From contig JBARIA010000028.1 in the NCBI GenBank assembly GCA_049799515.1, positions 783 through 64,782 on the forward strand: 64,000 nt of DNA, read 5' to 3'. Within the stretch, counting starts at the first letter, position 1, and every line of letters starts with the position of its first letter. The notes under the pieces were generated by a model. It was not told the DNA's origin. It worked only from the letters and a program-made list of their open reading frames with translations, and did no database searches. This DNA comes from Candidatus Dormiibacterota bacterium (lineage in GTDB: Bacteria > Chloroflexota > Dormibacteria > Aeolococcales > Bog-877). The translations under genes were made by a program, and so were the position numbers. This document shows positions 12,638-63,610 of the stretch, in pieces.

Positions 12638-12712
12638 GCGGGAGTGGCTCAGTGGTAGAGCGTCTCCTTGCCAAGGAGAAGGTCGCGGGTTCGACCCCCG
12701 TCTCCCGCTCCA
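12638..12712 (+). tRNA. tRNA-Gly (anticodon GCC), CCA encoded
   Basis: GCGGGAG...CTCCCGC acceptor stem, GGCTCAGTGGTAGAGC D-arm, anticodon loop TTGCCAA, GGTTCGACC T-loop, and terminal TCCA. Confidence 0.95.
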
Positions 12713-52252: not shown

Positions 52253-52441
52253 ATGAGCACGGCGGTTTCGATCGGGGTGGCCGAGTGCCCGGAGTGCTCG
52301 GCCCTTTTGGGGGTTCCCCGGGGAACGGTCACCGGAGAGATCCTCCCCTGCGGAGAGTGCCTGGCCGAGTTGGAGGTGACCGCGCTCGCGCCGGTCAGCC
52401 TGGCCCTGGCTCCTGAGGTCGAGGAGGACTGGGGGGAGTGA
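52253..52441 (+). CDS. lysW: amino-group carrier protein LysW
   Basis: 62 aa with zinc-ribbon CPEC...CGEC and an acidic C-terminal tail ending EEDWGE. GAGGAGG Shine-Dalgarno sequence before the ATG at 52253. Confidence 0.9.
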   Translation: MSTAVSIGVAECPECSALLGVPRGTVTGEILPCGECLAELEVTALAPVSLALAPEVEEDWGE

Positions 52442-53319
52442 GCCCAATCAGGGTCGGGCTGGTCTGCTCTCGGGTACGGGTGGAGGAGAAGATGCTGCTG
52501 GAAGCCTTCTCCCGGCGCCCTGGAGTGGAGGTGGTCCGGATCGACGACGAGCTGATCCAGGCGCCCCTGGTCGGCCCGGTCAAGCCGGGTGGCCCGGCGG
52601 CCGATCTGCACGGCTGCGACGTGGTGCTGCTGCGTGGTCTGGGCCATTACCGCCAGCTGGCCCTGGCCCGCCTGGTCGAGGCCTGGGGGTTGTCGGTGGT
52701 CAATCCCGCGGCGGTGGTGGACATCTGTGGTGACAAGCTCAGCACCACCTTGGCCCTGGCGGCCGCCGGAGTCCCCACTCCGGCGGCCCGGGTGGCGTTC
52801 ACAGTGGAGGCCGCCCTGGCGGCGATCGAGGAGCTCGGCTACCCCTGCGTGGTCAAGCCCACGGTGGGGTCTTGGGGGCGGCTGGTGGCCCGGCTCAACG
52901 ATCACGACGCGGCGGAGGCGGTGCTCGAGCACAAAGTGCTCCTCGGGGGTCCGTTGCACAAGGTGCTCTACCTCCAGGCGTACATTGACAAACCCGGACG
53001 GGACTTGCGGGCCTTCGTGCTGAACGGCCAGACCGTCGCGGTGATCGGCCGGCGCTCTGAGCACTGGATCACCAACACCGCCAGGGGTGCCCGGGCCGAA
53101 GCGGTAGTGATCTCCCCGGCGCTGGCAGACCTCTGTGCGCGAGCGGCGGCCGCAGTGGGAGGAGGGGCGCTGGCGGTTGATCTGCTGGAGAGCGCCGACG
53201 GCCTGCTGGTGAACGAGGTGAACTCGACCATGGAGTTCCGCAATAGCGTGGCTCCAACCGGGGTCGACATTCCCTCGCTGTTGGTGGACCATGCGCTGGC
53301 GCTGGTAGCGGGGAGTTGA
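52438..53319 (+). CDS. lysX: RimK-type ATP-grasp ligase, alpha-aminoadipate--LysW ligase
   Basis: ATP-grasp pattern (CGDKLSTTLALAAAGVPTP, YPCVVKP, EVNSTMEF). GTGA overlap with lysW. Confidence 0.9.
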   Translation: MSPIRVGLVCSRVRVEEKMLLEAFSRRPGVEVVRIDDELIQAPLVGPVKPGGPAADLHGCDVVLLRGLGHYRQLALARLVEAWGLSVVNPAAVVDICGDKLSTTLALAAAGVPTPAARVAFTVEAALAAIEELGYPCVVKPTVGSWGRLVARLNDHDAAEAVLEHKVLLGGPLHKVLYLQAYIDKPGRDLRAFVLNGQTVAVIGRRSEHWITNTARGARAEAVVISPALADLCARAAAAVGGGALAVDLLESADGLLVNEVNSTMEFRNSVAPTGVDIPSLLVDHALALVAGS

Positions 53320-54353
53320 CCAGGGTCAGCGTGGTCGGCGGAGCCGGTTACGTGGGCGGAGAGCTGGTGCGGCTGCTGCTGGGCCATCCCGGTCTGGAGC
53401 TTGGCCAGGTGACTTCCCAATCCCATCGAGGTCGGCCGCTGGCCAGTGTCCACCCCAACCTGCGCGGGTTCACCGAGCTGCGCTTCACCGACCACCACCA
53501 GTTGGAGAGCTGCGACGCAGTCGTCTCAACGGGAACCGGTGTGAGCGCCCAGCCATCGCTTTCGCAGCTCCGCCAGCTGGCACCGGTGGTGCTCGACTGC
53601 AGCCCCCGGCTAAGGCTGCGGAGTTCCATCCAATATCGCAGCTGGTACCAAACCGATCCCGAGCCAGAGGGGGTGCTGGCCGAGGCGGTCTACGGGCTGC
53701 CCGAAATCAACCGCTCGGCCTTGAGCCAGACGAAGCTAGCCAGCGGAGTTGGCTGTTCGGCGGCGGCGACCATCCTGGCCCTGCTCCCCCTGGCGCGCGC
53801 CGGTTGGCCGCTGGCCACCCCCGCCTTCGTCGAGGCCAGGTTTGGCTCCTCGGCAGCGGGATCGAAGCCCGGCCCAGGAGGACATCACCCGGAGCGCAGC
53901 GGGGCGGTCAGGGTCTTCGCACCCGAGGGTCACCGGCACCAGGCCGAGGTGACCCAGGCGCTGGGATGGGACCCGGCCCAGCTCAGCTACTCCGGGGTGG
54001 CGGTCGAGATGGTCCGGGGCATCTCGGTCTCGGTCCGCTGCTTTCTGCAGCGACCGGTCACTGAGGCGGAGCTCTGGGACGTCTTCCGGGCGACCTACCA
54101 GGAGGAGCCTTTCGTCCGGATCGTGGCCCAGCACTCGGGTCTGCACCGCTATCCGGATCCCCGCTGGCTAGTGGGCACCAACATCTGCGATGTCGGCTTC
54201 TCGCTTGATGGTTCCGGGGAGCGTCTTACCCTGCTGGCGGCCCTCGACAACCTGGGCAAGGGCGCCGCCGGGAACGCCGTCCAGTCCCTCAACTGCATGC
54301 TGGGTCTGGAGGAGCGGGCGGGGCTCGGCTTCACCGGGCTGCATCCCCTGTGA
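53316..54353 (+). CDS. lysY: [LysW]-aminoadipate-6-phosphate reductase (ArgC-like)
   Basis: VVGGAGYVGGELVRLLLGHP and the active-site region GVGCSAAA. TTGA overlap with lysX. Confidence 0.88.
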   Translation: MTRVSVVGGAGYVGGELVRLLLGHPGLELGQVTSQSHRGRPLASVHPNLRGFTELRFTDHHQLESCDAVVSTGTGVSAQPSLSQLRQLAPVVLDCSPRLRLRSSIQYRSWYQTDPEPEGVLAEAVYGLPEINRSALSQTKLASGVGCSAAATILALLPLARAGWPLATPAFVEARFGSSAAGSKPGPGGHHPERSGAVRVFAPEGHRHQAEVTQALGWDPAQLSYSGVAVEMVRGISVSVRCFLQRPVTEAELWDVFRATYQEEPFVRIVAQHSGLHRYPDPRWLVGTNICDVGFSLDGSGERLTLLAALDNLGKGAAGNAVQSLNCMLGLEERAGLGFTGLHPL

Positions 54354-55222
54354 CTCCCTCTGCCTCCAGGTCGCCGAGAGCTACCGAGTCGGTTCTGGTG
54401 GTGAAGATCGGTGGCGGTGGGGAGATCGATCAGGAGGCGGTCTGCCGAGACCTGGCGAGCCAGTGGTCGCGGCGGCCCTTGGTGGTGCTCCATGGAGCGT
54501 CCAAGGAGCTGGATCAGGTCTCGACCGCGTTGGGCCATCCGCCGGTGCGGGTGACGTCGATGTCGGGGATCGAGAGTCGCTTCACCGACGACGCCACCAT
54601 GGCGATCTTCAACATGGTCTACGCCGGCAGCGCCAAGGTCAGCTGGGTCGAGTGCATGCAGCGCGCCGGGGTGGCCGCGGTGGGACTGAGCGGCGTCGAC
54701 GGCGGCCTGCTCCGGGGTCCCGAGAAGGGGGTGTTGCGCTCCCGGCTGGGAGACGACCGCCAGCAACTGCATCGGGGGGACCGCAGCGGCCGGGTCACCG
54801 AGGTGAACGTTGAGCTGTTGCGGCTCCTGCTGGGAGCGCGCTATCTGCCGATCCTCAGCCCGCCCGCCCTCTCCCAGGCCGGGCGGTCGATGAACGTGGA
54901 TGCGGATCGTGCCGCGGCCCAGATCGCCATCGCTCTGGGAGCAGCGACCCTGATCTTCCTCAGCGACGTTCCCGGGCTGATGCTGGACCTGAGCCAGCCG
55001 GCGAGCCTGGTGCCGGACGTCCGCCGCCACGAGATTCCCCGGGCGATGGAGATCGCCAGGGGGCGGATGCGGACCAAAGTCCTGGCCGCCAAGGAGGCGC
55101 TCCAGGGCGGTGTTCGGCGGGTGGTGCTGGCTGACGGTAGGATCCCCAATCCGGTCGAGATGGCCCGCCTGGGTCACGGGACCGTGTTCCGCCGCAACGG
55201 GGTTTCCCGGACTGCCGGATGA
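54350..55222 (+). CDS. lysZ: [LysW]-aminoadipate kinase (ArgB-like)
   Basis: VVKIGGG, VLHGAS and NVDADRAAA motifs of the amino acid kinase family. GTGA overlap with lysY. Confidence 0.88.
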   Translation: MTPSASRSPRATESVLVVKIGGGGEIDQEAVCRDLASQWSRRPLVVLHGASKELDQVSTALGHPPVRVTSMSGIESRFTDDATMAIFNMVYAGSAKVSWVECMQRAGVAAVGLSGVDGGLLRGPEKGVLRSRLGDDRQQLHRGDRSGRVTEVNVELLRLLLGARYLPILSPPALSQAGRSMNVDADRAAAQIAIALGAATLIFLSDVPGLMLDLSQPASLVPDVRRHEIPRAMEIARGRMRTKVLAAKEALQGGVRRVVLADGRIPNPVEMARLGHGTVFRRNGVSRTAG

Positions 55223-56295
55223 GCGCGGCGGAGCAGCTGAGCCAGTGGGAGTTGGAGCTGATCACTGGGCTGGTGGCAATCCCTAGCCCAACCGGAGAGG
55301 TGGGGGACGCTGCCGCCTGGTTGGTCGCCCAGCTTCGTCAGCAACAGCTGGCCGCGGAAGTGGACTCGGTGGGTAATGTGCTGGCGGTGGTTGAGCCCAG
55401 CCATCCCGAGCCGCGCAGCGGCGAGGTCTACCTGCTGGGCCATCTCGACACGGTCGAGGGATTCTGGCCGCCTCGGGTGGAGCGGGGCCGACTTTCGGGG
55501 CGGGGAGCCTCCGACGCCAAAGGTCCCTTGGCCGCCTTCGTCGCGGCCGCTGTGCGGGCCCGCGAATCCGGCGAGCTGCGCCGGCTGGTCAGGATCCTGG
55601 CGGCGGTGGACGAGGAGGGAGAGTCGGAGGGAGCGCGGCAACTGGGGGCCAGCCTGGCTCCGCCGGCCTTCCTGGTGGTGGGCGAGCCCTCGGGGTCGGC
55701 CAGGGTGGTGCTTGGGTATCGCGGTCGACTCCGCTGCCGCTGGCAGCTGAGCTCCCCGGCGGGGCACAGCTCCCGGCCCGAGCCCACCGCCGCGGAGCTC
55801 GGCGTTTCCGCTTGGACCGCGATCCAGTCCCTGGTGGAGGCGACCAACGGCCCAGCTTTCGGATTCGATGCCATCGATGCCCACCTCCTGGAGATCGACA
55901 GCCGGAGCGATGGTCTCCAGGACACTGTCAGTCTGGAGCTCGGATTCCGCCTGCCCCCGTCGGTTGGTGCCGAGGCTCTGGTGGAGCTGCTGCGGGGATT
56001 GGCCCTCGGCGGGGAGTTCTTGGTCAGAGGCTCGGAAGAGGCGGCGCTGGTGCCGCGGGTCGGGATCCTTCCCACCGCCTTCGCCAGGGCCATTGCGGGC
56101 GACGGAGTGAAGGTCACCTGGCAGCGGCGACTGGCCACCTCCGACCTCAACGTGGTGTTGCCCAGGTGGAGGTGCCCTGCCCTGGTCTACGGACCGGGCG
56201 ACTCGGCGCTGGACCACACGCCGGAGGAGTCGATCGAGCTGGCCGACTACGCCCGGGGGATCCGGGTCCTCACCACCGTCTTACTGGGGCTCTGA
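55219..56295 (+). CDS. lysK: [LysW]-lysine hydrolase (M20/ArgE-like)
   Basis: LLGHLDTV, GRGASDAKG and DEEGES metal-site motifs. ATGA overlap with lysZ. Confidence 0.85.
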   Translation: MSAAEQLSQWELELITGLVAIPSPTGEVGDAAAWLVAQLRQQQLAAEVDSVGNVLAVVEPSHPEPRSGEVYLLGHLDTVEGFWPPRVERGRLSGRGASDAKGPLAAFVAAAVRARESGELRRLVRILAAVDEEGESEGARQLGASLAPPAFLVVGEPSGSARVVLGYRGRLRCRWQLSSPAGHSSRPEPTAAELGVSAWTAIQSLVEATNGPAFGFDAIDAHLLEIDSRSDGLQDTVSLELGFRLPPSVGAEALVELLRGLALGGEFLVRGSEEAALVPRVGILPTAFARAIAGDGVKVTWQRRLATSDLNVVLPRWRCPALVYGPGDSALDHTPEESIELADYARGIRVLTTVLLGL

Positions 56296-56586
56296 CCGCC
56301 GCCCTCGAGCAGGCGGCGCGGAGCCCTGGCCGAACTCCGCCGGCTGGCGGGCCAGGCTGGTGGGGGCCGGCCTTCCGGTGGCCGGGTCTGAACGGAGGGT
56401 CAGGGCCAGGGTGGGGCAGAACGAAACTGCCCGCTGGGCGTGCTGGCGCAGACCCGGCGGGATGGGCCCGACGTCGATGATCGGGTACCCCCAGTCGTCC
56501 ATCCGCACCATCTCGGGCAGCAGCTCGGCGCACAACCGGTGGCCGGCGCAGGCGGTGGGGTCGATCCGGAGGTACTCGGCCGTCAT
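56281..56586 (-). CDS. small ferredoxin (single-cluster type) with C-terminal extension
   Basis: IDPTACAGHRLCAELLPE...AVSFCPTLAL follows the CxxxxxC...CP ferredoxin pattern. ATGA overlap with the upstream gene. Confidence 0.8.
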   Translation of the reverse strand: MTAEYLRIDPTACAGHRLCAELLPEMVRMDDWGYPIIDVGPIPPGLRQHAQRAVSFCPTLALTLRSDPATGRPAPTSLARQPAEFGQGSAPPARGRRSEPQ

Positions 56587-57899
56587 CAGGGCGTCCCGTT
56601 AGGCGCCGATTGGGCCTCGAACCGACTGGTCTGGCCGGCCGTGCACCGGCCGGCCAGGTGGGCTGCCACCTCGCTGGCGAAGGTACCGATAGCGCTTCGG
56701 GCCAGCCGGACCGCCCCGTCCGGGTGATGGCAGGCGCCCCGTCCCTGAACGTCGTCGCACCACCTGAGGAGCTGGCTCACCAGACCGTCCGACGCCGAGG
56801 CTGGGTCTGCCAGCCGCTCCAGCGCTCCGGCAATTGCAGGAAGTCCAAGCTGGCAGGGGCCGCACTGGCCCGAGCTCTGCTCGGCCAGCCAGCGCTGTAC
56901 CCTGGCTGCCTCCTTCACCCCGCAGGCGGATGCGGGGAGAACGACAATCACCCCGGAACCGGGGGCCGCCCCCAGCGATTCCAGGTCAGCGCCACAGAAC
57001 CGCATCGGGGCTGCGGTCGCTGCGTCGACCCAGGTGCCGAAGTACCCCCCGACCAGGAGGGCCTGGGCCGAGTCGTCCCAGCCGGCTCCCCGCAGGAGGC
57101 CATGCATCGGGGCTCCAATGGCCACCTCGTAGACGCCCGGCCGAGAGACCGCGCCACTCACGGTGATCAGGCAGGTGCCGGGCTCCTCCGCCAGTCCCCC
57201 GGACCGAAACCAGTCCGCGCCGAAGCGGGCGATCAGGGCCAGGTGGGACAGGGTCTCCACGTTCTGTACCAAAGTTGGGTGGCCGCCAATCCCTCGCTGG
57301 AAGGGTCGCGGAGGCACCGGCCGGGGCTTCGGGGGGGCGCCAGCCACCCAGGAGATGAGCGCCGTCTCCTCGCCGGCCACGAAGCCGCCCGGGCTGACCA
57401 CCAGCTCGACGGCGATCTCGTCGGCGATACGAGTGCGGCGCTCGAGCAGGGCTTGTTGGATCACCCGGAGGGTCTGGCCGTCCCTGCCCAACGCCAGGAT
57501 CAGCCGGTCAGCGCGCACCAGCTGACCGGCCAGTTGCAGCCCATCTAGAACCAGATGGGGGCGCCGGCAGAGGAGGACTCGGTCCTTGGCACTAGCCGGC
57601 TCACTCTCGACCCCGTTGCCCACTACCACTGCAGTACTTCCCGCGTCGGCCTGCGCCTTCACCGCGGCCATCTTCTGGCCAGCCGGGAAGCCGCCTCCGC
57701 CTCGACCCCTCAGCCCGGCCGCACGGACCTCGTCGATCAGTTGGCGCCGGGGCCGGGCGTCCGGGCCCAGCCGAGCCAGGTGGTGGTCGAGCCCCTCCGG
57801 TGCGGTCCCCTCCGGGCCAGCCAGGAGCCGCAGCGGTCCGGAGATCCCGGTGCCCTCCGCGTCGCCGGGTGTCACTGGCGGTTCCGCACCGGAGCTCAC
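56586..57899 (-). CDS. NuoF-like NADH-binding FMN / iron-sulfur flavoprotein
   Basis: GLRGRGGGGFPAGQKM, GNGVESEPAS, FVAGEETALI, VQNVETL, and C-terminal SGQCGPC...GACHH. Start is the GTG at 57899 (GTGA overlap). Confidence 0.85.
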   Translation of the reverse strand: MSSGAEPPVTPGDAEGTGISGPLRLLAGPEGTAPEGLDHHLARLGPDARPRRQLIDEVRAAGLRGRGGGGFPAGQKMAAVKAQADAGSTAVVVGNGVESEPASAKDRVLLCRRPHLVLDGLQLAGQLVRADRLILALGRDGQTLRVIQQALLERRTRIADEIAVELVVSPGGFVAGEETALISWVAGAPPKPRPVPPRPFQRGIGGHPTLVQNVETLSHLALIARFGADWFRSGGLAEEPGTCLITVSGAVSRPGVYEVAIGAPMHGLLRGAGWDDSAQALLVGGYFGTWVDAATAAPMRFCGADLESLGAAPGSGVIVVLPASACGVKEAARVQRWLAEQSSGQCGPCQLGLPAIAGALERLADPASASDGLVSQLLRWCDDVQGRGACHHPDGAVRLARSAIGTFASEVAAHLAGRCTAGQTSRFEAQSAPNGTP

Positions 57900-58651
57900 C
57901 GGAGCCCCCGGTTGGCGGGGGACTTGGCCTGAGGCTGTGTGCCGGCCGAGGCGCTGCTGGAGGTATCGGAAGTATCTGAGGATGCCAGCAGCGAGCTCGG
58001 GGTGCCGGCGGAGCGGGCCCACCCGCTGCGCAGCGGTCCAACTTCGGCCCAGGCCACCACCGCGACGGGAAAGGCCACCAGGACCAGTGCCGCCCCCACC
58101 TTGAGAGTTCGAGAGTTGAGTTTGGCGGTCCGCAGCCGGGCGCCGGCTGCCACCACTACCGTCGCTAGGCAGACCATCTGCACTGCGAACGCCCACGCCA
58201 GTCTGGTGTCAGTTCCGGTTCCCAGGCAGTGCAGTAGCGCAACTGGCCAGGAGAGGTAGGCCAGCCAGTGAACCGTCTTCCAGGTGCGGTACCCCACCAG
58301 GGGCCGGACCAAGCTGGTGGCCACCACCGCGATCAGGATGTCGACGCTCAGGGTACCCAGCCCGAGCCAGACAGCTCGGTAGGGCGAGAGGAAGGGGACA
58401 GCGACCGCCAGCCAGCCCAGCGGAGCGAAGGGATCTAGCTCGGCAGTTAGGACGTGGACCACCAGGAGCGCCACCGCCAGGAGGGACAGATTGCGGTGCA
58501 ATCCGGTGACCACGAAGCGCGGCCACTGCTGCGGAGCCCATCCGGCGCTGCTAAGAATTCCCACCACCACACTGGCAGTGAGCACTACCAACAGCACCAA
58601 ACCGCTGCCCCTGGTCAGATACCAGAGGGTCGAGGCGGAGAAGCCGAACAT
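57896..58651 (-). CDS. ferric-reductase-like (NOX/MsrQ-type) bis-heme transmembrane domain protein, no dehydrogenase domain
   Basis: Six or seven TM segments with two His pairs spaced 14 and 13 residues apart (HRNLSLLAVALLVVH and HWLAYLSWPVALLH). ATGA overlap with the apbE stop. Confidence 0.85.
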   Translation of the reverse strand: MFGFSASTLWYLTRGSGLVLLVVLTASVVVGILSSAGWAPQQWPRFVVTGLHRNLSLLAVALLVVHVLTAELDPFAPLGWLAVAVPFLSPYRAVWLGLGTLSVDILIAVVATSLVRPLVGYRTWKTVHWLAYLSWPVALLHCLGTGTDTRLAWAFAVQMVCLATVVVAAGARLRTAKLNSRTLKVGAALVLVAFPVAVVAWAEVGPLRSGWARSAGTPSSLLASSDTSDTSSSASAGTQPQAKSPANRGLR

Positions 58652-59652
58652 CAGCCGGCTCTCGGCATCGATTCGAGGACGTCCTCGCACAGGGGCATCT
58701 CGTCACCCTCTGCGGGCCACCCTCCCAGGTGGAGCGCAGTCCCGGTCGCGGACACCAGCCGCGCGGGATAGCTTCGCTGCAACAACCATTGCGGCGCCGC
58801 CCTCCCGGCCACGATCCCCGCTGTGGAGGCGGTGTTTGCCGCCACACACGATGCACCGGCCACCGAGATCGTTCGCCAGGGGCCCTGGGCAGGTCTCCCG
58901 GTGCGGGGATCGATGATGTGGTGCATCAGCTGGCCGCTCCTCGTCCAGCGGCGCTGAGTCGTGGATGAGGTAGCCAGAGCCGGGCTCGTAAGTCTGACGT
59001 TCTGGCCGAGACCAGGCGAGCCAGGGTGGTGATCATCCGCCACCCGCACCACCCATCCGCCGGGGGGTGGCGGACCAGCCGTTGCCAGGTCGCCACCGAG
59101 ACTGACCAGAGCCGAACAGCCCAGCTCCAGCGCGAGCTCGGAGGCCGTCCGGTCCGCCGCCCAGGCCTTGGCTGTGGCCCCGAGATCGAGCAGCATCCCC
59201 ACCGGCAGTTGCACGGTGTCTCCCTGGAGCTGAACTCGCCGCCAATCCGACTCCAGCCTGCCGGCCGGAGTGGAGGCAGCCTGATCACCCGAAATCTGGG
59301 CAAAGTCCCGGGCGTACCCGGCCTCGGTCAGAGGACCTCCCACCGTCGGATCGACCAACCCATCGGTGGTCCGGGCTGCCTCCAGGGCGACTGCGAGCAG
59401 CTCTGCCAGCAGGGCCCCTACCCGATGCGGGGTGCCGGCGGCCCGGTTGAGCCGGTAAAGTTCGGAGTCCTCCCGGAATCGGCTGGCTGCGCGATCGAGC
59501 TGTTCCAGCAACGAGTCGACGACAGCCTCGGCTGCCGCCACCCCGCTTGGAGGATGGACCAAAAGCTCGACGGTGGTGCCCAGAGCCTGCCTGCGGGTGA
59601 GCGCCAGGTACCGGGGGCCAGCCGACCGGAGCCAGCTCCCGTCAACCCTCAC
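58651..59652 (-). CDS. apbE: ApbE family FAD:protein FMN transferase, no signal peptide of its own
   Basis: ALGTTVELLV, SELYRLN and LDLGATAKAWAADR motifs. GTG start overlaps the upstream stop (GTGA). Confidence 0.9.
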   Translation of the reverse strand: MRVDGSWLRSAGPRYLALTRRQALGTTVELLVHPPSGVAAAEAVVDSLLEQLDRAASRFREDSELYRLNRAAGTPHRVGALLAELLAVALEAARTTDGLVDPTVGGPLTEAGYARDFAQISGDQAASTPAGRLESDWRRVQLQGDTVQLPVGMLLDLGATAKAWAADRTASELALELGCSALVSLGGDLATAGPPPPGGWVVRVADDHHPGSPGLGQNVRLTSPALATSSTTQRRWTRSGQLMHHIIDPRTGRPAQGPWRTISVAGASCVAANTASTAGIVAGRAAPQWLLQRSYPARLVSATGTALHLGGWPAEGDEMPLCEDVLESMPRAG

Positions 59653-59957
59653 GAACCTCCCGAGCTGACGCTGGGCCTAGAATTCGCCGCCGCCGTGGGC
59701 GCGCTGGTTGGCACCGCCGCCGGGGTGCTGGCCGCGGGCCGGTGTGATTCGCCAGGCGAGGGGGTTGCGCCCACAGTTGGGGTCGAGGCTGCCGTGTTGG
59801 AGGTGGCGCTCCTGCCGGGCAGCGCCTGGCTGACCAGGACCGCCGCCAGGAACATGGCGCCGGTTGCGCCGATGATGGCGCGCCTCGTCCAGCGCCTGAG
59901 GGTTCGCAGACCGTCGTCCCGAGTAGCCGCTGAGGGCGATGCCGGACCCTTCATCAC
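59649..59957 (-). CDS. 102-aa protein consisting of a Tat-like signal/anchor and a Pro/Ala/Ser/Thr-rich tail
   Basis: WTRRAIIGATGAMFLAAVLVSQALPG (twin-Arg plus hydrophobic core) followed by low-complexity sequence. First gene of the coupled operon. Confidence 0.5.
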   Translation of the reverse strand: MMKGPASPSAATRDDGLRTLRRWTRRAIIGATGAMFLAAVLVSQALPGRSATSNTAASTPTVGATPSPGESHRPAASTPAAVPTSAPTAAANSRPSVSSGGS

Positions 59958-60203: not shown

Positions 60204-60836
60204 TCATGGCTGGCGGCTGGGCGGGGTCGCGGGCCGCGACCGGCGACTCCTGGTAGGGATGGCAGCTGTCGCGCAGATGCCGACCGCGAGGACGCTAACC
60301 GAGATTTGGAGTGGCCAGTAGAGGGCCATCCAGGTCCAAGCGGGTGGCAGTTGGCTGCTCGGGTCCAGCAGTCGCTGAAGAGAGAAGGGAACTTCCGAAC
60401 TGATGGTCCACTGCCCGGCGAGGATGCTGATGCCGGTCCCCACAGTCAGCGCGACCGCGGCCACCTTCCAGTGCTCGCGCCAGGCCAGCCAAACGCCGGC
60501 CAGCAGTACCAGCGCGCCCAGGAGGACCTTGGCCACCACCGAAATCCACCACCAACCGAAGATCCCCGCCGGTTCCATCTCCGGGATGGAGACCGCCCGA
60601 TACACCGCGAATCCCACTGACACCAGCCCCGCAGCGGTGGCCCAGCTGGCGAGCCAGGGAGCACCCAACGGCGATTGACCCTGTGCCGGCGGGTCGAACC
60701 AGGCGTCGGCGGCTCCCCGGAGCAGGTCGAAGGCGGTTCGGGGACTCCAGGGGACCTCCGCCAACACCTCGGCCATCTCGTCCTCGTACCGAGCCCGCCA
60801 AGTGGACGGGAAGAGTCGCGCCCATTTCCGGGTCAT
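60204..60836 (-). CDS. PadR-associated membrane protein
   Basis: MTRKWARLFPSTWRARYEDEMAEVL N-terminus, then four TM segments. ATGA overlap with the padR stop. Confidence 0.65.
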   Translation of the reverse strand: MTRKWARLFPSTWRARYEDEMAEVLAEVPWSPRTAFDLLRGAADAWFDPPAQGQSPLGAPWLASWATAAGLVSVGFAVYRAVSIPEMEPAGIFGWWWISVVAKVLLGALVLLAGVWLAWREHWKVAAVALTVGTGISILAGQWTISSEVPFSLQRLLDPSSQLPPAWTWMALYWPLQISVSVLAVGICATAAIPTRSRRSRPATPPSRQP

Positions 60837-61150
60837 CCGGTGGGTCGGGTGGCCAAGACTGCCTCGGCGAAGGCCAGCAGCTGGGTGCACTCCTCCTGGA
60901 GAATCTGCCGGCCGCCCGGGGTGATCTGGTACGGGTGCCGCCGATCCGCCGCCGGGAGGGGACGGATCCAGCCCCTGCGTTCGAGGCGCGAGAGGGTGCC
61001 GTACAGAGTCCCCGGACCCATCCGGACGTTGGCCTTGAGCTCGACGTCTCGCATCACCGCGTAGCCGTGCTTCGGGCCCTCGGCCAGGCTGGCGAGGACC
61101 AGCAGTGCCGAGTCGGCGAAGCGTCCCAATCCCGACAGGTCAGTGGTCAC
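60833..61150 (-). CDS. PadR family transcriptional regulator
   Basis: LLVLASLAEGPKHGYAVMRDV...GTLYGTLSRLERRGWI. Start is probably the GTG at 61150, since the region 61151-61210 is an AT-rich promoter-like stretch. Confidence 0.85.
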   Translation of the reverse strand: MTTDLSGLGRFADSALLVLASLAEGPKHGYAVMRDVELKANVRMGPGTLYGTLSRLERRGWIRPLPAADRRHPYQITPGGRQILQEECTQLLAFAEAVLATRPTG

Positions 61151-61282
61151 AAGCTTCTTCGCATGATATATCGACCACAGTATGATAGCTGGGATTGCCG
61201 ACGTCAAGGCGGTTGCCCTGAGATGGCGGTGGAGACTCCCTGGACACGGTCGGGCCGGCCCTGGGCCAGCCCTAGTGGTCGG

Positions 61283-63610
61283 TCAGGAGGCTTGCAGTCC
61301 CGCCAACTCGCGGACCGGGATCCCGAATCCGGCGCGGCCCTCGAACTCGCGAGCCGGTGCGGGCCTTCCGATGAAGTAGCCCTGGGCTAGGTCACAGCCC
61401 ATCCCGGTGAGCAGGTTGAGCGTCGGGTCATCCTCGATCCCCTCGGCGACCACCCGAAGTCCCAGGGCGTGACCCAGTTCGATGGTGGCCCGGACCAACG
61501 CCTGGTCTGCTTCCAGGCCAGACTGCAACCCGACGATGAAGGTGCGGTCCAGCTTCAGTTCGCTGACCGCCAGGTTGCCCAAGTAGGCGAGTGAGGTGAA
61601 GCCGGCGCCGAAGTCATCGACCGAGACCTCCACCCCCTCGGTCCTCAGCTCCTGGATCACCGATTTGCAGCCATCAAAGTCCTTGATGATGGTGGTCTCG
61701 GTGATCTCAAGGAGGAGGCACGAAGCGGGCAGCTGATAATGACTGAGTCGCTCCCGGACCTGGTCGACGAAGGTGGGATCGAGCAGGTTGGTGATGGAGA
61801 TGTTGACCGAGACCGTCAACTCTCGACCGGCCGAGCGCCAGGCGGCGCACTGGGTCAGAGCGGTGTCCAGCACCAGGGCCGTCAAGGGCCGCATCAGGCC
61901 GACCTCTTCGGCCAGCGGCAGGAAATCCATGGGGGCCACCATGCCCAGTCGAGGGTGCGGCCAGCGCAGGAGCGCCTCGACGGTGGAGATCACGCCGGTG
62001 TGCAGATCCAGCTGGGGTTGGTAGTGGAGCTCGAACTGATGATCCTCGACAGCGACTCTGAGCTCGTCCACCAGGCGAAGTCGACTGCCCTCGTCGTCGA
62101 TCTCCCGGTTGTAGACCTCGAAGGGCTTGCCACTGACCTTGGCCCGGTACATCGCGAGATCGGCGCAGCGGAGCAGGCTAGCGCTGTCCGATGCATCGGT
62201 GGGGGCGACGGCGATGCCGATGCTGGCACTGATCCGGACGGTCACTGAGTCTAGATGGAAGGGCTCGGTGAGCTTGGCCACCAGCCGTTCGGCGACCGCC
62301 GAAGCGTAGCCGGGGTCGCTGCCAGTGACGATAACCCCGAGTTCGTCTCCTCCCACTCTGACCAGGGCGTCGGAACTGCGCAGAGCGCCGCTGAGGCGCG
62401 GGCCCAGCTGGCGGAGGAGGGCGTCTCCGGCGGAGTGGCCGAAGGAGTCGTTGATCTCTTTGAAGTGATCAAGATCGATGAACAGGAAGGCCAGCAGGCG
62501 ATCTGGAGTGCTGGGGTCCGCCCGGTCGGCGAAATAGGCGTCCAGCAGGGCGAACAGTCGGCGGCGATTGCCTAGGTCGGTGAGGTGGTCGGTGACCGAC
62601 TGGCGCTGCCGCTCATCGGTGAGTTTCCGCAGCCGTACCGCCGAGAGACCGGCTCGAATCCCAGCTATCGCCAATGTTGCGATCGCCAGTCCCACCGCGA
62701 TCTTCGCGGTTGGGTCGACCACGATGATGATCAGGGCGCCAGCCGCAGCCAGGCCGGGGAGGAGGAATCCCGGAGTTCTCTGGATCAGGAGCAGGTTGGT
62801 GGGGCCGCTGCGCAACCACATCGAGCTGGACACCAGCAAGATGGTGATTGGCCAGGCGATCCCGTTGCTGATGTCGGCGATGGCACTGTCGTGGTTGGCG
62901 AGCTGCAGCAGGTTGAAGCTGTCGCCCACCGCGATCGTGATGCAGGCCACTGCCAGCACGATCCACTGAGCCTTGGGCCGTCCCGGGAAAGTGGCGGTAC
63001 CACCGATCACCAGGGCCAGAAGCAGCAGGTCGCCGACCGGGAAAGCCAGATTGACCGCCACTCCTAGAGGGTGGCGGCCGAAGGCCCCGAGAGACTGGAC
63101 AAAGGCGTGCCGGAAGATGAAGCAGGCACACACTGCCGCGGCCCCCAGTCCGGCCACCAGCCCGTCGAGCCAGGTCGCGGGAACCAGGTGCCTGATGTCG
63201 CGGCGCATGACTTGGACCAGCCCCACGTAGGCGAGGGGGTAGAAGAGCAGGTAGAAGACGTCTGCCACCGAAGGCTGGGGTGGGGTCGCGTTGTTAAAGC
63301 TCTGGAATGTGGTGACGCTATCCCCCACAGTCCAACTGAGCAGGGCGGCCCCGAGGACCAGTGGGATGATCCGGTTGCGGCGCTTTCCGAACGCCAGGCC
63401 GAGGCACAACAAGGAGGCCGCGAACTCGAAGGCATCCACCCCAAACCCGTCGAGCGGAGTGGAGTACTTGTAGTTGCGAAGGATCAGGGAGATGAGATAG
63501 GCGACGATCAGGGCAGCCATCACCCCGTAGACGATCCAGATCAGCTTCGGCGATCGACCTCTCTTGGACACTTCAGCAGTACGACGCGCCAGAGAGAGCG
63601 TGTTGAACAC
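61283..63610 (-). CDS. membrane-anchored GGDEF-EAL protein (diguanylate cyclase / phosphodiesterase domains)
   Basis: About 9 N-terminal TM segments. GGDEF domain with RSSD-x5-GGDEL. EAL domain with EALLRW, LLLEITE and DDFGAG. Confidence 0.92.
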   Translation of the reverse strand: MFNTLSLARRTAEVSKRGRSPKLIWIVYGVMAALIVAYLISLILRNYKYSTPLDGFGVDAFEFAASLLCLGLAFGKRRNRIIPLVLGAALLSWTVGDSVTTFQSFNNATPPQPSVADVFYLLFYPLAYVGLVQVMRRDIRHLVPATWLDGLVAGLGAAAVCACFIFRHAFVQSLGAFGRHPLGVAVNLAFPVGDLLLLALVIGGTATFPGRPKAQWIVLAVACITIAVGDSFNLLQLANHDSAIADISNGIAWPITILLVSSSMWLRSGPTNLLLIQRTPGFLLPGLAAAGALIIIVVDPTAKIAVGLAIATLAIAGIRAGLSAVRLRKLTDERQRQSVTDHLTDLGNRRRLFALLDAYFADRADPSTPDRLLAFLFIDLDHFKEINDSFGHSAGDALLRQLGPRLSGALRSSDALVRVGGDELGVIVTGSDPGYASAVAERLVAKLTEPFHLDSVTVRISASIGIAVAPTDASDSASLLRCADLAMYRAKVSGKPFEVYNREIDDEGSRLRLVDELRVAVEDHQFELHYQPQLDLHTGVISTVEALLRWPHPRLGMVAPMDFLPLAEEVGLMRPLTALVLDTALTQCAAWRSAGRELTVSVNISITNLLDPTFVDQVRERLSHYQLPASCLLLEITETTIIKDFDGCKSVIQELRTEGVEVSVDDFGAGFTSLAYLGNLAVSELKLDRTFIVGLQSGLEADQALVRATIELGHALGLRVVAEGIEDDPTLNLLTGMGCDLAQGYFIGRPAPAREFEGRAGFGIPVRELAGLQAS

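Follow-up and report, generated by a model that had tools for sequence, protein, structure and literature searches.

The window analysed here is a 64-kb stretch of DNA (64,000 nucleotides, nt) from a Candidatus Dormiibacterota bacterium (assembly GCA_049799515.1, contig JBARIA010000028.1, positions 783 to 64,782). Near its end, five minus-strand genes encode a small protein, below called the mini-protein, an ApbE-family transferase, a ferric-reductase-type membrane protein, below called the cytochrome, a NuoF-like flavoprotein and a ferredoxin, and it is proposed here that the C-terminal tail of the mini-protein is the site at which ApbE attaches flavin. A sequence-only reading of the same DNA had claimed five genes on this strand, and all five open reading frames (ORFs) were found where it had placed them:

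59649..59957, minus strand: gene for the mini-protein, an ORF of 102 amino acids (aa)
58651..59652, minus strand: gene for an ApbE-family FAD:protein FMN transferase (FAD, flavin adenine dinucleotide; FMN, flavin mononucleotide) of 333 aa, PF02424
57896..58651, minus strand: gene for the cytochrome, a six-helix membrane protein of 251 aa with a ferric-reductase domain of the MsrQ/NOX/STEAP type, PF01794
56586..57899, minus strand: gene for the NuoF-like flavoprotein, 437 aa from the GTG at 57899
56281..56586, minus strand: gene for the single-cluster ferredoxin, 101 aa, Fer4_15

Base-by-base reading of the junctions showed that the five genes are tightly coupled in translation. The mini-protein and apbE genes overlap by 4 nt (GTGA, 59652-59649), and so do the cytochrome and NuoF-like genes (GTGA, 57899-57896). 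Overlaps of 4 nt had been claimed for every junction; the two GTGA overlaps stand, but the two supposed ATGA overlaps are TGATG sequences with an overlap of 1 nt. At the first of these (58653-58649) the TGA stop of apbE and the ATG start of the cytochrome gene, a start also used by the homologues P0001 and P0002, share only the A at 58651; the second (56588-56584) joins the NuoF-like and ferredoxin genes. Relatives such as locus L002 have 4-nt overlaps at all four junctions. Linkage was counted by tblastn with the five window proteins on fetched related loci, 67 of which had enough flanking DNA for all five genes. The full gene order was present in 53 of the 67, which bears out the earlier view of the five genes as one unit, and 8 more lacked only an adjacent apbE. 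The NuoF-like and ferredoxin genes lay immediately downstream of the cytochrome gene in 66 of 70 loci, and apbE lay immediately upstream of it, overlapping or abutting the mini-protein gene, in 65 of 77. This linkage is far above chance, since the same order is kept while the flanking genes differ between lineages. That the five genes are unrelated neighbours in a merely compact stretch is vanishingly improbable: the general compactness of bacterial genomes speaks for it, but the order and the overlapping stops and starts recur in two phyla beside unrelated flanking genes. Scans for promoters and terminators gave nothing informative in this DNA of 70% GC, and an Rfam scan of the window found no FMN riboswitch or other RNA leader, the sole match being a tRNA (12638-12709, plus strand).

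The operon is conserved over hundreds of genomes of soil Actinomycetota and Dormibacterota. The closest homologues were found in Candidatus Dormibacterota, and a scan of one genome per species confirmed relatives of the cytochrome in at least 598 species genomes. The best 80 of these at least 598 belong to Dormibacterota, Acidimicrobiia, Thermoleophilia (Solirubrobacterales and Gaiellales), Streptosporangiaceae and Nanopelagicaceae, and include a cultured carrier, Actinocrinis puniceicyclus DSM 45618 (locus L049).

Membership of the cytochrome in the ferric-reductase superfamily, as first proposed, was checked by profile and by alignment. The protein matches PF01794, most of its homologues have a precomputed match to the same family (their source annotation is YedZ/MsrQ), and two pairs of histidines are conserved:

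58454..58498, minus strand: His52 (58496-58498) and His66 (58454-58456) in transmembrane helix (TM) 2, presumed ligands of the inner and the outer heme
58229..58270, minus strand: His128 (58268-58270) and His141 (58229-58231) in TM4, presumed second ligand of each heme

All four histidines are invariant in alignment A1 (21 homologues) and alignment A2 (78 homologues). The spacings, 14 residues for H52/H66 and 13 for H128/H141, had already been called NOX-like and are confirmed; in NOX2 the heme-binding pairs H101/H115 and H209/H222 are likewise 14 and 13 residues apart. The cytochrome is thus presumed to bind two b-type hemes. Pfam found no FAD/NAD or FMN_bind domain in it, in agreement with the earlier claim that neither a fused dehydrogenase nor an FMN-binding domain is present. 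AlphaFold2 (AF2) models showed six TM helices, with a predicted local distance difference test (pLDDT) score of 77 for the window protein and 83 for a long-form relative, and the best fold matches in the PDB were STEAP2 and STEAP1 (Foldseek probability 1.0, TM-score 0.40-0.46). Both termini are predicted to lie outside, because of homology to TM3 and TM5 of NOX and the distribution of Arg and Lys in the loops. The conserved stretches ELDPFAP…SPYRPxW, GTGTD and GPLxxGWAxxAGTP would then be on the outer face.

Most homologues of the cytochrome are 360-397 aa long and possess a C-terminal beta domain. This long form, exemplified by P0035 (residues 262-375) and L002:7001-8164, has a GPLxxGWAxxAGTPxxLL segment followed by a disordered linker and a domain of eight beta strands (AF2 pLDDT > 95), whereas the window protein ends 33 residues past the conserved AGTP motif after its last helix. 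The linker, made of Pro, Thr, Ser and Ala and predicted to be outside, resembles that of the mini-protein. No Pfam family or PDB sequence matched the beta domain, and Foldseek returned only weak streptavidin-like or eight-strand-barrel similarities, none of which was accepted as an identity. The beta domain may bind the flavin tail or the acceptor.

The earlier domain calls for ApbE, the NuoF-like protein and the ferredoxin hold in Pfam. The NuoF-like protein matched Complex1_51K (E 1.7e-28) and NADH_4Fe-4S (E 5.2e-14), and could be aligned with Nqo1 of Thermus thermophilus (E 3.9e-48) over the glycine-rich FMN loop GRGGxGFP and the motifs ESEP..KDR, GEETAL and PTxxxNVET. Its score with the NCBIfam model TIGR01959 was 208.8 bits against an equivalog cut-off of 558.65, and neither a NuoE partner nor any other nuo gene was adjacent to its gene in the window or in the compared loci; the protein is a NuoF-like paralogue and not the NuoF of complex I. 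The first Cys of the CxxCxxC motif of complex-I cluster N3 is Ser in this family, while C326, C346, C349, C390 and C419 are near-invariant (73-74 of 76 sequences; of the extra cysteines, C326 is kept in 74 and C419 in 73), so that the Fe-S site likely has an altered, rearranged ligand set. Overall, the protein is predicted to bind NAD(P)H and FMN and to have a 4Fe-4S site of variant type. The ferredoxin matched Fer4_15 (E 8.2e-12; 46.1 bits against a cut-off of 22.4) and has the motif C13-x2-H16-x2-C19…C57-P, in which C13, C19 and C57 are each kept in 73-75 of 75 members; His16, at the position of the fourth ligand, is present in 66 of 75. The pattern CxxHxxC…CP is that of the 3Fe-4S ferredoxins of actinobacteria, and by analogy the cluster would be of the 3Fe-4S type. 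With 101 aa the window ferredoxin is longer than its relatives (67-84 aa), owing to a Pro/Arg-rich C-terminal extension (56281-56390) that is not conserved and may be simple read-through into a convergent gene.

The most economical reading of these proteins is still the one first put forward, a split NOX-like module that receives its electrons from NAD(P)H, because of the superfamily, the arrangement of the histidines, the absence of a fused dehydrogenase and the presence of the NuoF-like and ferredoxin genes as obligatory neighbours (66 of 70 loci). A transmembrane conduit that carries electrons from cytoplasmic NAD(P)H through a two-heme cytochrome is likely.

The mini-protein matched no Pfam or NCBIfam model, and a database search returned only two relatives, both annotated as hypothetical; matches were few because the linker of the protein is of low complexity. 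Inspection of the loci themselves revealed an ORF ending in the tail motif at the same position in 76 of 84 related loci or, counted another way, a mini-like ORF in about 74 of the 77 loci whose upstream DNA reaches far enough. These proteins share one build, with an Arg-rich N-terminus, a single hydrophobic helix, a hypervariable linker of Pro, Ala, Ser and Thr and a C-terminal SGGS. The corresponding features in the window are:

59880..59921, minus strand: N-terminal motif R-D-x-G/A-L-x-R-h-x-R-x-T-R-R/W, residues 13-26
59820..59879, minus strand: hydrophobic Ala/Gly-rich segment, residues 27-46
59652..59669, minus strand: V-S-S-G-G-S at the C-terminus, residues 97-102, where FMN is proposed to be attached to Ser102

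Residues 13-26 of the window protein read RDDGLRTLRRWTRR and include a Tat-like T-R-R-A-I-I (Tat, twin-arginine translocation); the motif recurs in Dormibacterota, Acidimicrobiia and Thermoleophilia. It is followed across the family by 19-20 hydrophobic, Ala/Gly-rich residues (mean Kyte-Doolittle hydropathy 1.87 in the best 19-residue window), a conserved A-x-A/S and then L/F-P/H-G-R/H/K. The N-terminus had been taken for a Tat signal, a claim that comparison did not support: a twin Arg is found in the window and, as T-R-R-W-V-I, in Solirubrobacterales, but in many other relatives there is only one Arg or no Arg here, and it is the longer N-terminal motif that is conserved over the family. Because of this conservation, the hydrophobic segment is more likely a retained signal-anchor than a cleaved Tat signal. 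The helix is flanked by a mean of 4.8 Lys and Arg residues on the N-side against 1.9 on the C-side; a few mini-proteins have equally basic flanks, but the N-flank is the more basic one in 68 of 72, and by the positive-inside rule the N-terminus is therefore predicted to be inside and the C-terminus outside. The part after the hydrophobic segment measures 37-115 residues (median 68). The mini-protein thus appears, from these comparisons, to be a conserved and apparently new subunit of the operon. Its interpretation as a truncated FMN_bind gene or pseudogene was rejected, as its stop codon and the ApbE domain leave no room between them and about 75 loci show the same short build.

For statistics of the tail, 75 distinct mini-proteins were collected, and all 75 end in [ST]G[GAST][ST]. 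The tails were SGGS (63), SGGT (3), SGAS (3), TGGS (2), SGSS (2), TGTS (1) and TGGT (1); Ser or Thr is present at position -3, Gly at position -2 and Ser or Thr at position 0 in every one of them, and the residues ahead of the tail are Val or Ala and then Val, Thr or Ser. Wherever a locus has apbE, the ORF immediately before it closes with [S/T]-G-[G/A/S/T]-[S/T] and then directly the stop codon, while only 7 of 7,275 other ORFs of the same loci have such an end. The last six residues show a mean pairwise identity of 0.76, against 0.18 for the preceding 30, a stretch built from Pro, Ala, Ser, Thr, Gly and Gln. Selection on the tail acts on the protein and not on the DNA, because synonymous codons vary: Gly is encoded by GGC, GGA, GGG or GGT and Ser by TCC, TCG, TCA or TCT. 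An origin of SGGS as a by-product of the Shine-Dalgarno sequence or start codon of apbE was rejected, since the stop codon also varies (TGA or TAG), several junctions between the two genes do not overlap, and the tail is kept in about 10 loci without an adjacent apbE, where the mini-protein gene directly precedes the cytochrome gene. Two Acidimicrobiales loci (L063:4617-4976 and L065:4575-4967) have the order apbE, mini-protein, cytochrome, and here the mini-proteins end in …VSGGTSW, so that two further residues follow the motif and the acceptor would presumably be Thr. In a divergent Dormibacterota locus (L080:3587-4075) the tail ends in …PPPPPPPPPVCHSTPTHPC instead of SGGS; this terminus with Cys and His might bind a metal or another cofactor.

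ApbE enzymes attach FMN to the last Ser or Thr of D-x-x-[S/T]-G-A-[S/T], and a minimal motif of seven residues suffices (PMC12052999). Replacement of the Asp by Ala has a minor effect, about half of the flavinylation remains after exchange of Gly for Ala or of Ala for Val, and engineered flavin tags work best at a protein terminus (PMC12052999). Proteins of the FMN_red type are flavinylated on an unstructured C-terminal extension (PMC11334425). By these standards the SGGS tail of the mini-protein looks like an ApbE flavinylation site, because the three most constrained positions match, the motif is terminal and it is the only conserved one of its kind in the module; moreover, its rare variants include the canonical SGAS. 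The other four module proteins have no conserved [ST]G[AGST][ST] column and were rejected as carriers of the site, and a canonical substrate elsewhere within the 64 kb was likewise rejected, since no D..[ST]GA[ST] or FMN_bind-like motif occurs in the credible genes of the window. The sequence-only reading had described the flavinylation substrate as missing from the operon. This was probably wrong, as the substrate is most likely the mini-protein itself, whose C-terminus holds the only conserved flavinylation-like motif of the module.

The same tail might be read differently, with the mini-protein as a structural or assembly subunit and ApbE serving an FMN-binding-domain protein or an NqrC/RnfG-type protein encoded elsewhere. 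This is unlikely, and equally doubtful is the related idea that SGGS is conserved for another purpose, such as plugging or contacting the outer face of the cytochrome. Both would account for a tail without the canonical Ala and Asp, for the roughly 10 loci that keep the mini-protein but lack an adjacent apbE, and for the Cys/His-containing tail of L080. Against them stand the overlapping or abutting position of apbE in 65 of 77 loci, the lack of any other flavinylation-like motif in the module, and the variants SGAS, SGGT and TGGT, which all stay inside [S/T]G[A/G][S/T]. Furthermore, Pfam found no FMN_bind, DUF2271 or DUF3570 in the operon, and none was among the 25 most frequent families listed for 215 flanking ORFs of the related loci.

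The transferase itself matches the ApbE family (PF02424, E 1.3e-51; relatives 1vrm and 4xdt in the PDB). Its HHxxDPxTG motif aligns with that of solved ApbEs and is conserved over the family, and an aromatic Phe occupies the flavin-stacking position. In all family members the ApbE domain begins about 20 residues after the start codon, and as this start overlaps the stop of the mini-protein gene, there is no room for a signal peptide; the enzyme is predicted to be cytoplasmic. One could suppose on these grounds that the flavinylated tail is cytoplasmic as well and forms an inner flavin relay from the ferredoxin or NuoF-like protein to the cytochrome, comparable to the cytosolic-side FMN in MsrQ of E. 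coli or to FAD in STEAP. The missing export signal of ApbE throughout the family would then match the location of the tail, MsrQ does use an FMN at its cytosolic face (PMC12525009), cytosolic ApbEs are known (PMC12052999), and in a few mini-proteins the two flanks of the helix are equally basic. An inner relay is nevertheless quite improbable, given that the positive-inside rule places the C-terminus outside in 68 of 72 mini-proteins, that both heme sites are intact, so that the flavin position of MsrQ and STEAP is occupied, that the mini-protein linker matches the C-terminal linker of the cytochrome, which is predicted to be outside, and that the NuoF-like protein already has an FMN of its own.

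With the tail outside, the proposed chain would run as follows. The NuoF-like protein would oxidise NAD(P)H at its FMN in the cytoplasm and pass single electrons through its Fe-S cluster to the CxxHxxC…CP ferredoxin, which would reduce the inner heme of the cytochrome, and the electron would cross to the outer heme. The mini-protein would be a fifth subunit of the complex, its Arg-rich N-terminus cytoplasmic and its single helix in the membrane beside the cytochrome, and its disordered linker of 37-115 residues would present the C-terminal S-G-G-S. Co-translated ApbE would join FMN to the last Ser by a phosphoester bond. As ApbE is predicted inside and the tail outside, modification is postulated to be a cytoplasmic step that precedes translocation of the short unfolded tail, and translational coupling may help in this. 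The tethered flavin would then take electrons from the outer heme and hand them to an extracytoplasmic acceptor that the operon does not encode; Fe(III), O2 and an oxidised component of the envelope are candidates. The chances that this entire chain, including flavinylation of the tail by ApbE, is correct as drawn from sequence are about even.

Several observations weigh against it. The operon family is known from its genes alone. Within the tail, position -1 is Gly in 69 of 75 mini-proteins and the canonical Ala in only 3, position -6 is mostly Val or Pro with no Asp among its six commonest residues, and the acceptor is Ser in 71 of 75, whereas characterised ApbEs prefer Thr (PMC12052999). 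The match of the cytochrome to PF01794 lies exactly at threshold (28.1 bits against a gathering score of 28.0, E 2.4e-6), and its Foldseek E-values are weak (1e-2 to 8e-2). In the window clade the cytochrome is short, the beta domain of most relatives having been lost, which leaves the flavin no defined docking site. In the ApbE family the Mg-ligand Asp of ADALxT is Asn (consensus dAN.AsT), and the window protein reads AANTAST, the preceding Asp of most relatives being Ala. The enzyme has neither a signal peptide nor a lipobox, though the tail is predicted to be outside, and we know of no direct precedent for modification by ApbE followed by export.

If the chain holds, the mini-protein may represent a new class of ApbE substrate, a natural flavin tag that consists of an anchor, a tether and a C-terminal Ser-FMN without a folded flavin domain and that serves as a swinging-arm carrier from the outer heme to acceptors of the cell envelope; this we put forward only tentatively. 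Equally tentative is its corollary, that a signal-less ApbE made from the overlapping downstream gene modifies the mini-protein in the cytoplasm and the tail is threaded outward. A carrier of this kind would avoid the need for export of FAD.

The module is self-contained and often lies beside signalling genes; nothing is conserved downstream of the ferredoxin gene and the flanks vary by lineage. Pfam analysis of 107 downstream ORFs revealed no conserved gene there, and a conserved terminal reductase in this position was therefore rejected. Upstream, pairs of OmpR-type two-component genes (OmpR/HisKA) were found in about 20 of 58 related loci and GGDEF-EAL genes in 13-14 of 58. Upstream flanks with GGDEF/EAL or two-component genes are seen, for example, in L019, L022, L024, L033, L039, L046, L051, L059, L074, L076 and L081, among others. 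The kinases scored best with TIGR01386 (heavy-metal sensors of the CopS/CusS/HprS type) but under its cut-off, and a specific identity for these generic OmpR/HisKA systems was rejected.

These flanks also bear on a further explanation, in which the cytochrome is an ordinary MsrQ that serves periplasmic methionine-sulfoxide repair of the MsrP type, with the NuoF-like protein and ferredoxin in place of Fre. Its homologues are annotated YedZ/MsrQ, and the best kinase match recalls E. coli, in which hprRS adjoins msrPQ. Oxidored_molyb was detected in 2 of the 107 downstream ORFs, which means, however, that a molybdoenzyme gene stands beside the cluster in two loci only. In addition, E. coli MsrQ has one heme and an FMN (PMC12525009), as opposed to the two invariant His pairs found here, and the conserved apbE and mini-protein genes would be left unexplained. 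A repair function of this type is thus very unlikely.

In the window, the operon is directly preceded by a gene (60204-60890, minus strand) for a multi-pass membrane protein of 228 aa that belongs to no known family; this gene is overlapped by one for a PadR-family regulator (60833-61207, minus strand), and a PadR gene occupies the same position in L001. Just upstream lies a gene for a multi-pass membrane GGDEF-EAL protein (61283-63610, minus strand). On the other side, a block for lysine or arginine biosynthesis of the LysW type (alpha-aminoadipate pathway; 52438-56295, plus strand) is convergent with the operon. Its genes, for an ATP-grasp LysX-like protein, a semialdehyde dehydrogenase, an amino-acid kinase and an M20 peptidase, are joined by 4-nt overlaps, and the last one shares 15 nt (56281-56295) with the 3′ end of the ferredoxin gene. 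L001 has this neighbourhood too, with a LysW zinc ribbon, homoaconitase and homocitrate synthase.

The combination of genes had been thought undescribed, but related systems have in fact been defined. Méheust et al. 2021 described MsrQ-like flavinylation-associated systems, in which PF01794 and apbE occur together, typically with a gene for an FMN-binding domain; 31 of their MsrQ-like clusters include a NuoF-like protein (PF10589), NAD(P)H was suggested as the cytosolic donor, and the systems are mainly actinobacterial and predicted by bioinformatics only (PMC8238504). The operon shares with them the clustered PF01794 cytochrome and apbE and the NuoF-like entry for NAD(P)H. It differs in that it has no FMN_bind, DUF2271 or DUF3570 gene and an ApbE without a signal peptide, where an FMN-binding-domain gene and a signal peptide would be expected, and in its SGGS mini-protein and dedicated ferredoxin, both unmentioned in the accessible part of PMC8238504. 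As described there, only clusters with a signal peptide or lipobox on ApbE or on a recognised substrate were kept (PMC8238504). The ApbE studied here has neither, and the mini-protein has a signal-like or anchor-like segment but is no recognised substrate; the present family may for these reasons have been filtered out of that survey. What appears to be new, then, is the mini-protein with its SGGS tail, within a type of system already described bioinformatically.

A split system has also been studied experimentally, namely MsrQ of E. coli with the cytosolic reductase Fre; this MsrQ has one heme and a non-covalent FMN on the cytosolic side, and serves a periplasmic molybdoenzyme (PMC12525009). 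Common to both are the superfamily of the membrane domain and a separate cytosolic NAD(P)H oxidoreductase as donor, while the present system differs in its donor, a NuoF-like protein with a ferredoxin, in its two His pairs, both invariant, and in its apbE and mini-protein genes; no molybdoenzyme is linked to it. The tail itself resembles the engineered terminal flavin tag (Tong et al. 2021, as summarised in PMC12052999) and the FMN_red extension in that a short terminal peptide is enough for ApbE and the acceptor is the last Ser or Thr of [S/T]-G-x-[S/T]. In those cases, however, D-x-x-[S/T]-G-A-[S/T] sits on a folded protein, whereas the mini-protein is only an anchor and a disordered linker with a V-V-S-G-G-S motif, and its flavinylation is predicted. 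The cytochrome has the six-helix bundle of the NOX/FRE/STEAP proteins, the NOX2 spacings of 14 and 13 residues and STEAP2 and STEAP1 as best structural matches, but unlike them it has no fused FNR-like or F420-type dehydrogenase domain, its heme helices are TM2 and TM4, and both of its termini are predicted to be outside. Extracellular electron transfer (EET) in the monoderm Listeria (Ndh2, EetA/B, PplA and FmnB) likewise employs an ApbE-type enzyme and a flavinylated, membrane-tethered extracytoplasmic carrier (cited in PMC8238504). A covalently flavinylated, tethered outer carrier that hands electrons outward is also what is proposed here; the Listeria route, however, uses the quinone pool, a folded FMN_bind lipoprotein and an exported FmnB, in contrast to a di-heme cytochrome fed by a NuoF-like protein and a ferredoxin.

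The wiring of the cell exterior to cytoplasmic reductant through covalent flavinylation by ApbE is emerging as widespread in bacteria. To our knowledge, all natural ApbE substrates so far are folded flavin-binding proteins or domains. As a bacterial model of NOX-type electron transfer across the membrane, with a complex-I-like flavoprotein feeding the conduit, the module described here is clean and separable, and the cultured A. puniceicyclus DSM 45618 makes experiments feasible. If the proposed flavinylation is true, nature would already employ the minimal tag that protein engineers devised, and the question would arise how a flavin attached in the cytoplasm gets outside. In about 17% of the genomes that encode ApbE, no substrate with a recognised FMN-binding domain is present (PMC8238504). 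A tethered SGGS peptide would explain one such group of orphan ApbEs, in at least 598 species of abundant soil Actinomycetota and Dormibacterota.

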